From Spizellomyces punctatus DAOM BR117 (Eukaryota), in NCBI GenBank assembly GCA_000182565.2, contig KQ257456.1: a stretch of 64,000 nucleotides of DNA; one strand, 5' to 3'. This document shows, piece by piece, positions 3,358-13,437 of the stretch (positions within the stretch are counted from its first letter, which is position 1; each line of letters begins with the position of its first letter). Position numbers and translations under genes: made by a program. The notes under the pieces are model-generated. The model saw nothing but the letters and a program-made list of their open reading frames with translations. It ran no database searches and had not been told where the DNA came from.

Positions 3358-6300
3358 ATGGACAGAGGAGACATGGAATCCAAAAAGCGATCCCACTCGC
3401 CTGATGCAGGGAGTGGAGCATCTCATCGATACGGATCAGATTCTTCGCTTTCACTACCATCCTTCTCACCAGCGGCTCCATCTGAAAGATATAATTTACC
3501 ACCACTCTCCAGCCTCACCTCGTTTGCTGCCGGTGGTGGGCCCCCGCCGCCGCCATCTCTTCATGGGCATATGCGGAGATCTGGATCTGAGGCGTCTCCC
3601 CCGCCACCCGTCAACAGTGCCAAGCGCTTGCGACTGGATGACACTGGATCGGTTGGATCTGCTGGAAGTCGGGATCGGTCGCAGTACGGGTCGCCGGCAG
3701 GCGCTGATGACCTAGGCGGTGGTCGCAGGCATTACATGCACTCGATGCCGGAACTTCCTGGTGAGTATTGGGTTTACATCATAATGGGTGCTAGCAGATA
3801 GGATTGTACTGATGAGAAGCTGTATCTAGGTATAGCTTCCATTACCGGACGTCCAGCACAAAACCCACCAGCAATGCCACTGTTTTCACCGGGGGCAATG
3901 CCTCCTTCAGCATCATCCCATGACGTCGATCATAGGTCCATCCTCCCGTCCGCTGGACATAGAGTGGTACCCGAATACACAGGCACTGCTCCGCCCACCC
4001 TTCCGTCCTTGAAATCTTTTAGCGCTGATGCTCTTCCAGAACGGACGCGAGGGTCTCCTGTTCTCAGTAGTCATTACGCGGCATCCGATTCTACACGATA
4101 TGGACCGTCTGGTGCTCCGCATTACTCTTCTTCAGCCTCTGTGCTAACTCCTTCTGGTGGAACTAATGCAATAGTACAGTCATCTCCTGGCCTCCTTTCC
4201 AGTAATAGAATGACATTACCGCCATTCAATGCAAGTTCTCCGGTCAGCAAAGTGCCAAAGCCGCCAGCAACCAATCTCTATAAGAGAGAAGGTAATGCGA
4301 CCACTTCAACCAGTGGTACAGCGTCAACATCAGTGACTAGCAGAGGTTCACCCTATCAGTCGCCCCGGTTGTCCCCTGCGTTGAACCCTACCATTGCAAC
4401 GATACCCCCTCCGGCAGCGTCATTTCTTCAAGCAGCGAATGGCACTGGACCTGCATTTGCCGCCAACCCCTTTGGCGTATCCCAATACGGTCCCAACTAT
4501 TACCCCTCTGCCGTGAAGCGTCTAGATTATGAGCGAAAGGACATACCAAGTGTCCTCTCCCGAGTACCCAACCCACCATCTTCCGCGGGAGAACCATCGA
4601 CTCCCCTAGGAACGTCTTCCAGTGAACTGCATGCTGTCGGAGCACTTTTACATGCTGCTTCTGCCGGTTCACCTACAGACCGCGACACTGGCTCTGGGGA
4701 TGGCGACTTGGACGAATCAGGTGCTGCTGGCAATTCGGAAGATTTGGAATCAGAGGACCTACGCAGTGGTGCTGCACTTCGAAGACGGACCAAGGGGCCC
4801 GATTCAGAAGCGGGCGAGCCGCTTGGGCGTGTCCTCATAATGGGGGTCCGTAAAGCTGATATGGAAAAAGCTAAAGAAGAAGCAAAACGAAAACGTAAAC
4901 CTGGGGATGTTGCTGTTGTGAATGATGAAAGATTAATTAAGTTGCCGAAAAATGTCGAAGAGAGATTTTTAGGTGAGAAGGTATATTGAGCGACTGATGC
5001 GATTATATTGAACTAAAAATAATTCTTTCAGGACATGTTAATTATACTGGTCCCCGCGTGAAAGTTCCCGGGTCTATCCGAGTAGAAGATATTGAACTCT
5101 TCCTGCTACCTCAGTTCACTAGCGAACATCATTACAGTACCATCGAAGTTCGCATTCCAGCGCACTTGCTGACATTTAAGAACAATGTTGCCGTGCGGCG
5201 ATCGGCCGTGTGGGGAACTGATGTATACGCTGATGATTCCGATGTTGTTGGCAGTAAGTTTGTCGCTGCGCAGGTTCAGCCGTGGCATTTCACTCACGGA
5301 GATTATATGCAGTGATTATTCATTCTGGATGGTACAAACCAATTGACTCACCCGTAACAAAGACTGTCCGCGCTCTGGGATTGACGACAGAGCGTCGGGA
5401 ACCTGAAACTCAGATTAAGCAGGAGCCGTTGAGTCCTAACGACGAAGACAAGAATGGCCAACAGGTTAGCACAACAGTCGAAGATAGCGCGACGCAGAGC
5501 AGTGTACCCCCAGAAACAGCCACCGTGCGCGTACTACCCCAACCTCCACCAGAGCCCATCACAGGAAAGGTAGATCCGCGGGACGGACTACCCGACCACG
5601 ATTTACACGTGACTTTGAGGATACTACCAAGATTGGTCAAGTACAGTGGCTCTTCGCGTAACGGAATAGAATCACGGGGATGGGGTGGTTTGCATGATGG
5701 AGAGAGCGTGCGAATCGAGAACGTTGTGTTGGCTGATAAAGGTACTGTGGGTCGTAAGGGACGAAAGACGGGTGCCAAGGGATGGAGCGCGATGGCAAGA
5801 ATCGTCGCTCGTGAACTGATTGCTATGGAACAAGGAGACGACGATGGGGAAGGAGACTGGGGGTGGGGCACAAAAGAGCCTGCAGAAGGTTTCGGAACTG
5901 TCACGTTTGTTTTCTCTGACTTTGATGGAGAAGCCTGGTAAGTTATTGTCTGCGAGGGACTCGCTCAACCGTTTCTCCCCTGGACTCATCAGGTTCTCGT
6001 CCGTTAGTTTGAAATACTCGCCAAAATTATTGATAGACTGGCCACCGTATTTACGAGATCTTTTTTGGGATTCAGAAACATGCCTTCAACGCGCTCGAGA
6101 GAAAGGCAAACATTACGCAGACGGCACAGAGTCGGCGTCTCAGCGAGCGCAGGAAATAGTTCAACGCCGCGTAGAAGTGCAAGAGCGAAAAGCCGAGTTC
6201 ACAGGGGAAGAGCTACGACGTATGCGTGATTGGCCATACTGGCGCATTAGGATGTTAAAGGATACCTTGTTTTTGGAAGATGGGTATGGTAAAAGGTAGG

Positions 6301-10180: not shown

Positions 10181-10779
10181 ATGCACAATGGGTAACTGCG
10201 CGCAAACAGTCAGCTTGATACTATACACAGAAAAGGTGGGCTACAAGAAGCCCCAAGATTACCCTTTGTCCGGACGCGTAGGGGCGAGGGCAAACGACCG
10301 CGGGAGTTGGTTGCTGGTTTCTTGAAGGGTGGTTCCGCGAGAAACGAAATGTGGAAGGAAGGAAAGAAACGGTTCGCTTCGCTTCTTTTCTTTCACAAAC
10401 CACTTTCTATATTTGGTTACATTGAATTCCAGTCGCATGATTCGCTAGCGATTTGTGATTCGATCAGCCATTCGATCAGCTCACTTTTTGCAATGCATTC
10501 CATCACTCGTTTCATTATTCCATTTACAGGTTAATGAAGTGTCATTGGATTCTGGTAGGCGATTCTTATCAGAGATCTCTGCGGCGTTCCTCATAGCGCT
10601 TTCTATACCTGCCATTATGTTGTTAGAAAATATTGGACCAGTCGGTTGACTTTTCCAGGTGCTCAGCACTTTGAAGAATCTCTGTTTGTCATCCGCATCG
10701 ACCATTTCGTAGGCGTATTTATAAAATAGAATTTAGGGTTCACGCCTGTAGATCCAAAGCACACCAGCACCGTCACATA

Positions 10780-10804
10780 GTGTATTGGCAAGAACTAATG
10801 TCAC
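10780..10804 (+). repeat. Left terminal inverted repeat of the Fanzor element
   Basis: GTGTATTGGCAAGAACTAATGTCAC, preceded by CATA (10776-10779); pairs with 13043-13067. Confidence 0.75.
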
Positions 10805-10938
10805 AAACAATACACAAACTGAGTCGATACATTGAGTCATGGAGTGTCATATATGTGGCAAACTGCAGAATATTCCTCTCATAGATGGCCGTCAGATGGC
10901 TGCAAGGGATAGTAATTGCAATCATTCATGGCCGCAGG

Positions 10939-11014
10939 TATTGGACCCGTTTTCATGCTGGCCACACATATTGGACCCGTTTTCATGCTGGCCACACATA
11001 TTGGACCCGTTTTC
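10939..11014 (+). repeat. 30-bp tandem repeat (about 2.5 copies) inside the Fanzor element, upstream of the ORF
   Basis: Unit TATTGGACCCGTTTTCATGCTGGCCACACA exact at 10939 and 10969, partial at 10999. Confidence 0.95.
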
Positions 11015-11077
11015 TCATGACAACAAACATAAATAGTGGCCATGGTCGCGGCATTTTCTCCTTTAACCCATCCTGAT

Positions 11078-12928
11078 ATGGGATGTCCTACATGTAACGG
11101 CACCGACCATCATCGGGCTTCCAGCAAACTTTGCTCCTTCTACAAACCTCGAAAGAAAAACGAAGTACGCACAACTTTGAAAAGGAAGAGGGATACCGAC
11201 CTTCCCAATGACGAAATCTTCATTCTTTCGACTGTTGTAAAAAGTGGACAACGGTCCCCTTTGCAAGTTGTTATCGCACATGCTGCGAGAACCTTGACTT
11301 GTATCGCTGCTGAAGCCACGCGGTTGTTCAACATGTTCGTCCTGGACCTTTTGGAGAGGAAGCAACAAATCCCCGAGTGTAGTTACAACAAATTTCTGCA
11401 CCAACCATTCCAGATTATTGCTTTGGCAAAAGCATCTTCCCCCCAACTGCAAACGATTCATCGCACCTTGTACCGTCAAACATCTCGATACGATGTTACC
11501 TACCTCAGCCAGCTGATCTCAAACATGGCCAAAGATTACGAGACCAACTGCATGAACCATGTATCAACAAACATTCGCAAATGGGCTTTCAAGTGGTATC
11601 GAATGAAGATGCAGAAGACGTACCCAGATCTCAAGCGAGATAAAATCCGAATTCTGTTCAACAAGGAAGATGACTTGAACGAGCATTCTCTTTACTTAAA
11701 GGCATGCTTGATGACATATGACGTTGACATCACCAAAGAGGTGTCATTTGACCATTGGTGGACATACTTTCCTTTGATGTGGAAGTTTCAAAGGTATTTT
11801 GCCAAGCACGGAGAGAGGAATTTCTCCATGGTCCCAATTACCACTTACGGGATTCGCCACATCCGTCTCGATACCAATGCACTTTACAAACTGTGCCTGA
11901 GAGTGGATCTATTCACCAGGAAGGATGTACCCGCAGCTGAATTCCGGACAAACGCTCTCGTTTATTGGAAAACCCTGTTCCCCGATATTGCCGAGACGAG
12001 CAACAAGTCATTTGCATACGGCGTCTCGACCGACGGAGTCGCTTGCAGTTACTATTACCAGAAACGTTACGTTCGGCGGCGACAGAGTCACAATTACTAT
12101 GGCTTCGACGATGACGGAAAATATGGAGCAATGAATTTGGAAGACGGCGTATCCATCGTCGGTGTGGATCCCGGTAGGATTGACATCTTTACAGCTGTTG
12201 ATGGGAACGAAAATGTTGTGAGGATGTCCAGAAAGGAATTTTACTCACTCACGGGCATGGTGGCAAGTCAGAAGACTAGAAACCGATGGTTAAAGAACAA
12301 CCCAGCAGTCCAGTCGATCGTAACGCAATGTCCCACACCACGCACTCCAGATATTGAGAACTTTCGACAACACTGTCAATATGTGCAGCAGCATCTGTTA
12401 ACCTTGGTCGACTTTTACGGAGCGCGGCGGTTCACCCGTCAAAAGTTGCACACTTACATTGGCAAGCAGAAAGTCTGGGCTACGATCGTAAGAAGAATTA
12501 CCAAGAATGACAGACGCACGGTTGTGGCGCTGGGCGATGCAAAGTTCAGACACAACTCCAAAGGCGGACCTTCGACACCCCTCGCTAGGATGGCCAAAGA
12601 GTTAAAAAGGAGACACCGGGTTCGAATGATTGACGAATTCAGAACGTCCATAACGTGTTCACATTGCGATGGTGAATTGCCGAAAAGCACTCGACACTGG
12701 CAGGTCAAGGTACGTTGGGCCGTCATGAATTCGGTTTCACAAAAGTGAAGTTGAATTTGTGTGTTTTGCCAGGTCTGCAACGACTTATGTTTGACTCACT
12801 GGAATCGAGACGTTAATGCGGCAAGGAACATTCGAAATATTTTTCTCCACATGAACGAGAACAACGGAGAACGCCCTTGCTGCTTTGCACGTACTGTACC
12901 CCAGTTCAACCCAGGCTGGAACCTGTAG
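11078..12928 (+). CDS. Fanzor1 (eukaryotic TnpB-like RuvC RNA-guided endonuclease), ~595 aa; exons 11078-12709 and 12773-12928 (alternative ATG at 11042)
   Basis: RuvC-I SIVGVDPGRIDIF (D codon 12167), VVALGD, rearranged catalytic Glu in MIDEFRTS (12635), Zn finger CSHC...VCNDLC and RuvC-III WNRDVNAARNI (D codon 12809). Also FSMVP and GVSTDGVAC motifs, an N-terminal CxxC..H..C knuckle and basic NLS-like KPRKK/LKRKRD. Phase-0 intron GTACGT...TTTTGCCAG at 12710-12772. Confidence 0.93.
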
Positions 12929-12994
12929 CGAGTTAGGATAGGGGTGGGACTCGTTTGCAGGATAGGTTATGAAGGGTTGGACAGGCTGGCTAAT

Positions 12995-13089
12995 TGTAAA
13001 TTAGAACCGGCTGTAGTGGGTTGGAGGGAGAATCTGTCCCTAGTGACATTTTCTACCACCTGCACACTATTGCGACCAAGTATTCTGCC
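12995..13089 (+). ncRNA. Putative Fanzor omegaRNA: scaffold to about 13069 plus flank-derived guide (~TTGCGACCAAGTATTCTGCC)
   Basis: Lies between the Fanzor stop codon and the right end, the known omegaRNA position. Visible stems are AACC/GGTT (13005-13022), GGGA/TCCC (13026-13040) and TAGTG/CACTA (13041-13069). The 5' boundary is a guess. Confidence 0.7.
13043..13067 (-). repeat. Right terminal inverted repeat of the Fanzor element
   Basis: GTGACATTTTCTACCACCTGCACAC followed by TA; inverse of 10780-10804. Confidence 0.75.
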
Positions 13090-13437
13090 AGCAAGTGTGT
13101 TTATTTGCTGACGTGAGCCTTTTGTTTATAACAAAAATGGCGGTCCCCCCTTTGCGTTTCAAATGTGGTGGGCGCCAATGCCGTTGTACCCCCGTGTTTC
13201 AGGTCAAAGTTGTTGAGTATCTCAACATGCCCCTTGCCCACTTTGCGTGCATAGGGCTCGTGTATGCTTGAACAAAGAGCGTGAGAAAAAGGCAGCGGGG
13301 TGCTCGTTCCACCGCCCTTCCCGTCACCTTTGCACGTTCGCAGCCCGGACATTTGAGTTTCCGGGGAATTGGCGAAAGCAGTTATCCTAACAATCGGGCG
13401 GAACTCAAGAAACCTGCCCTTGTCATCCAGTTGGGCA

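Follow-up and report, generated by a model that had tools for sequence, protein, structure and literature searches.

A divergent Fanzor1 transposon of Spizellomyces with a multi-copy, transcribed right end that probably encodes a guide RNA

The 64-kb stretch of chytrid DNA analyzed here (hereafter, the window) carries a TA-flanked element with a Fanzor1 gene that retains its catalytic residues. The element ends at a sharp right boundary, and its transcribed right end is present in multiple copies, most of which differ from this gene upstream. A layout of 2 stem-loops is common to the best folds of this right end and of the right ends of related elements. The right end probably encodes the guide RNA (omegaRNA) of the nuclease, as in SpuFz1, and the overall explanation that we favor, with reasonable rather than high confidence, is a Fanzor1 transposon with a two-stem-loop right-end omegaRNA and a guide taken from the flank. 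It would add one more example to a known kind rather than represent a new mechanism, and a specialist would expect an omegaRNA at this position.

The Fanzor1 gene and the element that carries it

The gene, the ends of the element, and the adjoining flanks comprise the following features.

10776..10779, + strand: left-flank CATA, a candidate TAM, in which CA (10776-7) precedes the TA shared with the element end
10778-13069, + strand: TA-flanked element, with TA at 10778-9 and 13068-9; right boundary by reads and contigs
10778..10807, + strand: left terminal inverted repeat, TAGTGT...AATGTCAC, weak as a repeat match
11042..12709, + strand: Fanzor1 exon 1 (556 aa), from translation, PDB match, and homologue alignment
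12710..12772, + strand: intron of 63 nt, GTACGT...CAG, from the homologue sequence restored on joining the exons and from a dip in RNA depth
12773..12928, + strand: Fanzor1 exon 2 (51 aa and the TAG stop), with the third RuvC aspartate in NRDVNAARN
13040-13069, + strand: right inverted repeat, inside candidate stem-loop 2 (see below)
13070-13089, + strand: host flank, TTGCGACCAAGTATTCTGCC, from the sequence

Both exons are open, and the spliced protein has 607 aa. The exon junction (...WQVK/VCNDLCLTHWNRDVNAARN..., after which exon 2 begins VCNDLC...) agrees exactly with the aligned homologues; the closest of the metagenome relatives compared below (L003) has no intron at the site that is occupied in the window gene, and RNA depth is lower in the 2 bins containing the intron. 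A phmmer search against the PDB matched chain 8gkh of SpuFz1 (E 7e-13) over residues 241-544 at approximately 30% identity; with identity this low, and in the C-terminal half only, the element belongs to a Fanzor1 family other than Spu-1. Only 5 homologues, 30-64% identical, were found among 5.8 billion proteins, the best named one (51% identical) being from the chytrid Borealophlyctis nickersoniae. The TnpB-like RuvC triad (D, E, D) is intact, with its third D contributed by exon 2; D376 (VGVDPGR) and E532 (IDEFRTS) are invariant in all 6 aligned sequences, and their motifs correspond in alignment to IDP and DEY of SpuFz1. A zinc-ribbon motif (CSHC...CNDLC) is present after RuvC-II, and its cysteines C539 and C542 are likewise invariant (6/6). 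The Pfam domain PF07282 is carried by 4 of the 5 homologues; in the window, it gives 2 sub-threshold matches, one on either side of the intron (15.6 and 17.7 bits; cut-off 26.3), which fall below the cut-off because the intron splits the domain. Judged from its RuvC triad, zinc ribbon, and relation to SpuFz1, the gene product is a Fanzor1 protein and would be a nuclease that cleaves DNA in an RNA-guided, TAM-dependent manner.

No protein identical or nearly identical to the product of the Fanzor gene (11042-12928) was found in the protein collection, yet the neighboring gene has an entry of its own, so that the Fanzor gene seems to be missing from the gene set of this genome. An orthologue of the gene neighboring the element occurs in Spizellomyces sp. 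‘palustris’ at 88% identity, which places the window in a Spizellomyces species. Three Fanzor1 families of S. punctatus, including SPu-1, are listed by Bao and Jurka 2013 (Table 1, PMC3627910); the present element may belong to one of the 2 others and so already have a Repbase entry, and its RNA may already be in the supplementary tables of Saito 2023.

The left end of the element begins TAGTGTATTGG... at 10778, with CA immediately before it, and the right end reads ...CTAGTGACATTTTCTACCACCTGCACACTA, with 13069 as its last base. Aligned as inverted repeats, the 2 ends agree at only 18 of 30 positions; because 4 unrelated + strand sites in the window also score at least 18/30 against the repeat, the left end is placed mainly by other criteria, namely, its position, its first 6 and last 8 bases, and its agreement with the right end of the relative L003 (21/30 positions). 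Copies of Spu-1 are described as encoding proteins that are approximately 82-92% alike and as having inverted repeats of approximately 30 nt and TA flanks (PMC3627910, PMC10432273), and the TAM reported for SpuFz1 is CATA, with CA conserved upstream of the left repeat of Spu-1 (Saito 2023, PMC10432273). Of such traits, the present element has TA at both ends and CA before the left TA, a dinucleotide that would occur there by chance at a single locus in 1 case in 16, and its repeats match at only 18/30 positions. The TAG stop codon occupies 12926-12928, 141 nt from the end of the element; the 139 nt given by an earlier reading made from the sequence alone is correct if the terminal TA is left out, and not if it is counted.

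The 64-kb window contains no second copy of the element, of its ends, or of its protein, and the exact right-end pattern had 0 matches in the genome contig and viral contig collections searched. The window as a whole includes 634 N and has a G+C content of 46.5%. The stretch from the left inverted repeat to the start codon contains three tandem 30-nt repeats (10929-11018; TGGCC.C..(G)TATTGGACCCGTTTTCATGC), copies 2 and 3 of which are 90% and 77% identical to copy 1, and a 13-nt look-alike is found outside the element, at 10630-10642. These tandem repeats could be promoter or transposase-binding repeats.

Copies and transcription of the right end

Public runs of the same organism (RNA reads from one run, DNA reads from another, and two sets of contigs) were mapped to 12400-13400 and outlined 2 further features.

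12878..13069, + strand: multi-copy, strongly transcribed segment, from DNA, contig, and RNA depth and from loose ends on both sides
13080..13215, + strand: read-through transcription into the flank, with an RNA depth of approximately 80 at 13080-13181, 8 at 13182-13215, and 0 beyond

By read and contig depth alike, the ORF is single-copy and the last approximately 190 nt of the element are multi-copy. DNA read depth per strand (X20) is 40-90 over the ORF, 130-250 over the right end from 12910, and 40-55 beyond 13216; contig word depth (X1) is 43 over the ORF and sums to 325-1250 from 12878, with no coverage after 13069. Contigs and reads diverge from the window at 13069, 13070, or 13071 into unrelated continuations (seen in two X1 contigs, four X2 contigs, and groups of X19 and X20 reads), and the boundary at 13069 is thus marked independently by read depth and by diverging contigs. 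At the other side, likeness among the copies begins at 12878-12897, and most copies differ from the window ORF upstream of approximately 12878; the sequence upstream of these other copies is absent from the 64-kb window. Taken together, the depth and the divergence at both ends indicate that the last approximately 190 nt belong to a family numbering perhaps 5-30 copies, in which this ORF is absent at the junction. The scaffold region is conserved among the copies, the likeness stops at the end of the repeat, and a variable flank follows. The sequence-only reading had taken this locus for the right end of a Fanzor1-bearing, TA-flanked element, which it is; its placing of the end at 13069 agrees with copies that are alike up to 13069-13071 and then have different flanks, the reverse of the pattern that would have counted against it, and the copies that differ from this ORF upstream resemble the ‘ghost’ loci that it predicted.

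The right-end segment is transcribed, with transcripts continuing into the flank in a run that is not a small-RNA library: RNA depth is 266-1540 over 12876-13079 versus 0-27 over the final 240 nt of the ORF. At this locus, RNA extends 110-140 nt beyond the end of the element, to approximately 13200, and 99.7% of the RNA reads in the flank are in one orientation. Most of the RNA peak over the right end must come from other copies. The window letter C at 13034 is found in 240 of 1309 RNA reads versus 22 of 384 DNA reads, and if this letter is unique to the locus, the local scaffold RNA is approximately 3 times as abundant as its flank. Two other positions vary between the data sets, with G>A at 13020 in 165/1414 RNA reads versus 5/462 DNA reads and C>T at 13039 in 333/1398 RNA reads versus 5/376 DNA reads; both variants likely come from one minor, very strongly expressed copy, RNA editing being conceivable.

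The RNA run consists of first mates only, in records averaging 39 letters, and probably represents a 3′-biased tag library, in which high depth near a transcript end is expected for any mRNA. No pile-up of molecule ends is listed for this non-small-RNA run. A 14-letter median of the loose ends of RNA reads behind 13069 was considered as a guide length and rejected, as other groups of loose ends have medians of 9-19 letters and the reads have at most 60. DNA depth in the ChIP run falls to 13-27 per strand at 13080-13215 versus 40-55 further on, which could reflect low nucleosome occupancy between the element and the gene that follows, or else a difference between strains, and the low DNA depth distorts RNA/DNA ratios in this interval.

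Predicted folds of the right end and of its relatives

SpuFz1 is reported to use a 75-nt scaffold over the right repeat with a variable extension of 14-15 nt, and to be accompanied by ORF-less ghost loci (Saito 2023, PMC10432273). [quoted passage not shown] The corresponding candidates in the window are as follows.

12981..13014, + strand: candidate stem-loop 1, with seven pairs next to the junction, an AA bulge, and six more pairs, from the best folds
13014..13069, + strand: candidate stem-loop 2, a long imperfect hairpin TAGTG...CACTA containing the right inverted repeat
13070..13085, + strand: putative guide TTGCGACCAAGTATTC, by extension from the 14-15-nt guides of SpuFz1 and from copy flanks that differ from 13070

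The best fold of the 75 nt at 12995-13069 (-18.8 kcal/mol) is one long imperfect hairpin, 13014-13069, in which TAGTG pairs with the terminal CACTA, and its stability is no better than chance against dinucleotide shuffles (z -0.24; for 12929-13089 and 13004-13069, z is -0.41 and -0.49). When extra upstream sequence is included, an additional hairpin forms at 12981-13014, and the 89 nt at 12981-13069 have z -1.81, with 11 of 200 dinucleotide shuffles equally good (z -2.51 with plain shuffles). An alternative fold with stem-loop 1 at 13005-13022 reaches -18.1 versus -18.8 kcal/mol, and with only 0.7 kcal/mol between the two, the predicted structure is tentative. By the fold with stem-loop 1 at 12981-13014 and the layout that it has in common with relatives (below), the scaffold would span approximately 12981-13069 and the guide would start at 13070. 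As DNA, the region is a foldback, with 13014-13043 and 13040-13069 complementary in inverted orientation at 22 of 30 positions. Rfam contains no family matching the interval, the sole row being a chance match (E 9.6).

A different fold had been proposed in the sequence-only reading. The sequence words on which it drew are all present: GAACCGGCTGT at 13004-13014, AACC at 13005-08 and GGTT at 13019-22, GGGA at 13026-29 and TCCC at 13037-40, CTAGTG at 13040-45 (with a second TAGTG at 13014-18), and CACTA at 13065-69, where the element ends ...CACACTA at 13069. The three-stem fold built from them has -9.3 kcal/mol versus -18.8 for the best fold and is not supported, the GGGA/TCCC stem having a pair probability of 0.005 and the stem of CTAGTG (13040) with CACTA being disfavored (0.0 for the 13041/13069 pair); the start then assigned to the scaffold, 12995, cuts through the best candidate for a first stem-loop, 12981-13014. 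A likeness of the right end to the SpuFz1 scaffold had also been proposed in that reading, and we treat it as an assumption. The letters of that scaffold were not found in the main text of Saito 2023 or of a 2026 Nat Commun paper; sequence words of the window and of L003 gave only unrelated primer strings in the literature.

A scan of metagenome contigs for relatives returned 80 loci, 4 of which (L003, L001, L002, and L040) have enough sequence after the gene. The comparison therefore covers 4 families, that is, the window and 3 related metagenome elements with protein identities of 54, 31, and 28%.

Window: stop to right end 141 nt; end by reads and contigs
L003: protein 54%, no intron; stop to right end 145 nt; ends ...GCACTA at 758
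L001: protein 31%; stop to right end 141 nt; end by inverted repeats, at 6115
L002 / L040: protein 28%; stop to right end 106 nt; two copies diverging right after ...CAGAGTGTA

L002 has a 28-nt repeat pair, and L003 was first noticed through a weak left-repeat match (E 5.9); BLAST of the window right end against the 80 metagenome loci gave nothing significant. The more distant loci L029, L036, L049, and L080 have no similar end, and L004, L019, and L023 were dropped from the comparison, as too little sequence follows the gene in them. L003 has another right-end-like sequence at 778-806, 19 nt after its own right end (758), which agrees with the window right repeat at 20 of 30 positions (TAGTGACATTTTC...ACTA); the arrangement suggests insertion into the end of another element or beside it. 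L040 (1410-2008) and L002 (1632-2231) are alike only over the final 600 nt (98.5%), with a common right end, and differ upstream, which makes L040 a 5′-truncated or ORF-less copy of the L002 family.

In their own best folds, the right ends of the window, L003, L001, and L002 all have a first stem-loop and then, 0-1 nt on, a hairpin closed by the terminal bases; in L040, the second copy of the L002 family, the terminal helix is missing from the best fold. The base of stem-loop 1 has 7 pairs in the window, L003, and L001 and five to six in the most distant relative. The closing pairs of the terminal helix differ as the ends differ (window and L003, UAGUG/CACUA; L001, UAUUG/UAAUA; L002, UAUACU/AGUGUA). 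The two-hairpin layout is common to the relatives only within the last 61-92 nt, and 12929-12980 has no fold in common with them. The pairs at the base of stem-loop 1 compare as follows.

Rank 1: window C-G; L003 C-G; L001 C-G
Rank 2: window A-U; L003 G.U; L001 G.U
Rank 3: window G-C; L003 A-U; L001 A-U
Rank 4: window C-G; L003 C-G; L001 C-G
Rank 5: window U.G; L003 C-G; L001 C-G
Rank 6: window G-C; L003 G-C; L001 A-U
Rank 7: window G-C; L003 G.U; L001 A-U

Paired changes on both strands are seen at ranks 3, 6, and 7, in a comparison of three or four sequences with the register aligned by hand. MAFFT alignments put the 5′ strands of stem-loop 1 elsewhere, so that no covariance model was built and the pairs were taken from the best fold of each sequence. 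Against shuffles, the right-end folds of L003 and L002 have z -5.18 and -3.28; the + strand is more stable than the - strand in 5/5 right ends, the - strand of L003 having z -3.46. A two-hairpin criterion, written post hoc after the folds had been seen, was applied at four lengths. The window, L003, and L001 satisfy it at 2 or more of them, as do 22 of 1000 random ends of the window; L002 satisfies it at a single length and L040 at no length. A junction motif derived from L003 and L001 was discarded as a marker, being not distinctive (29 matches in the window versus 19 expected).

A distinctly unlikely variant of our explanation is that the omegaRNA is real and its scaffold longer, starting near 12878-12897 and overlapping the last approximately 15 codons, as in TnpB and GtFz1. 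The copies are alike across the whole of 12878/12896-13069, beyond the last 75-90 nt, and RNA depth rises where the likeness begins, a coincidence with the start of the multi-copy part that may reflect copy number only. Known systems offer precedents, the omegaRNAs of GtFz1 and ISDra2 being described as overlapping the coding end (Saito 2023, PMC10432273), and the activity of SpuFz1 as increased by a 275-nt 5′ extension. Against a long scaffold, the shared two-hairpin layout is confined to the last 61-92 nt, upstream of which the relatives have no fold in common with the window.

We consider it improbable that the right end holds no guide RNA and acts solely as a DNA signal for the transposase (repeat and foldback), its RNA being the read-through 3′ untranslated tail of an mRNA. 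A signal of this kind would fit the palindrome formed by 13014-13043 as an inverted copy of the right repeat (22/30), a window fold no better than shuffles, and an apparently 3′-biased, non-small-RNA run in which no discrete RNA ends are seen and transcripts run 110-140 nt past the end. It would require neither the G-U pairs of the terminal helices nor the greater stability of the + strand in 5/5 ends, with the 2 strands of L003 at z -5.18 and -3.46; moreover, the structured part is found at the right end only, and an omegaRNA is present in all three Fz1 structures described (Xu 2024, PMC11423790).

That the abundant RNA is instead antisense, running on the - strand from the flank at approximately 13200 into the right end (a transcript of the silencing or promoter-upstream type, for example), is highly improbable: the first mate is opposite to the RNA in most stranded libraries, and a few reads at the start of the + strand gene downstream are oriented opposite to the flank reads, but the gradual leftward fall into the ORF, the sharp fall at 13182-13215, near 13200, and the dip over the bins of the + strand intron all fit a + strand RNA with its 3′ end at approximately 13200, and first mates averaging 39 letters fit a tag library in which the sense cDNA is read, as in some library designs. 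From this depth pattern, rather than from the strand convention of the library, we read the RNA as + strand.

Proposed mechanism and comparison with known systems

Returning to a two-stem-loop omegaRNA at the right end, we propose the following course of events, in which a discrete small RNA with defined ends, its binding by the protein, the TAM, cleavage, and homing are all modeled on SpuFz1. The element (10778-13069) would be a non-autonomous, TA-flanked transposon of a Spizellomyces-type chytrid with a single Fanzor1 gene, the transcript of which would run through the right end into the host flank. Its last approximately 90 nt (approximately 12981-13069) would fold into 2 stem-loops, the first with a seven-pair base and the second closing on the last bases of the element and including the right inverted repeat. 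The Fanzor protein would bind this scaffold; the first 14-16 nt of the flank (from 13070, TTGCGACCAAGTATTC) would be kept as guide, and the remaining transcript would be trimmed. The resulting complex would recognize and cut CATA followed by a guide-matching sequence. Joined to each other, the left and right flanks (...GTCACATA + TTGCGACC...) rebuild such a CATA-guide site, and the target would thus be the empty site, at which repair from a filled copy would restore the element.

A more far-reaching reading, which we regard as unlikely, joins 3 propositions: that the single-copy Fanzor gene serves the ORF-less right ends, that the repeat foldback is read in 2 ways, and that ends, TAM, and guides are shared with Spu-1. 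If it were true, the approximately 5-30 ORF-less right ends, transcribed more than the gene, would each have a guide derived from its own flank, and the same bases would be read as DNA by the transposase and as RNA by the nuclease. The ends (TAGTG...CACTA) and the CATA flank resemble those described for Spu-1; if this resemblance holds, 2 Fanzors that are approximately 30% identical might share ends, TAM, and even guides within one genome.

Some interest attaches to the single-copy gene beside a more abundant and more strongly expressed family of ORF-less right ends, to the scaffold hairpin as a foldback of the inverted repeat, and to the ends and TAM-like flank, which may be shared with Spu-1. 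If confirmed, the omegaRNA would give Spizellomyces a second Fanzor-omegaRNA pair, one that diverges strongly from the first, which would offer a comparison for the constrained parts of the scaffold (SL1 and the terminal helix) and for protein surfaces, would provide a further compact genome-editing candidate, and would allow one to test whether ORF-less ‘ghost’ guide loci are general in Fanzor families.

Compared with the SpuFz1 omegaRNA, the candidate scaffold is likewise found past the stop codon and takes in the right repeat, the candidate guide comes from the flank, CATA is found at the left, ORF-less copies share the right end, and the layout has 2 stem-loops, here as predicted folds. 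The window protein has 607 aa versus 638 and is approximately 30% identical, in the C-terminal half only; its gene has an intron, and the candidate scaffold measures approximately 89 nt versus 75, with the window copies alike over approximately 190 nt. The window ORF is single-copy, whereas 42 loci are reported for Spu-1 (Saito 2023, PMC10432273), and the window element falls outside the 82-92% protein likeness of the Spu-1 family. As with ghost Spu-1, many copies keep the right end and stop sharply at the repeat, with no such ORF upstream; they differ from ghost Spu-1 in number, approximately 5-30 by depth versus the 134 ghost loci reported (Saito 2023; PMC13434818), and in that the sequence upstream of them is not in this window. 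The seven-pair SL1 followed by one variable SL2 and then the guide resembles the Fz1 structures as described (Xu 2024), at the level of predicted folds only, and stem-loop 1 of the window differs from them in its bulge and six-pair extension.

The likeness extends to the omegaRNA of ISDra2 TnpB, of the bacterial IS200/IS605 group, which is also a right-end RNA with a guide from the flank and has the same presumed role, in that cutting of the empty site next to a TAM keeps the element. In contrast to ISDra2 TnpB, the window system is eukaryotic and belongs to an inverted-repeat element with TA flanks, its proposed scaffold does not overlap the ORF, and RNAs of the SpuFz1 type are described as having no pseudoknot.
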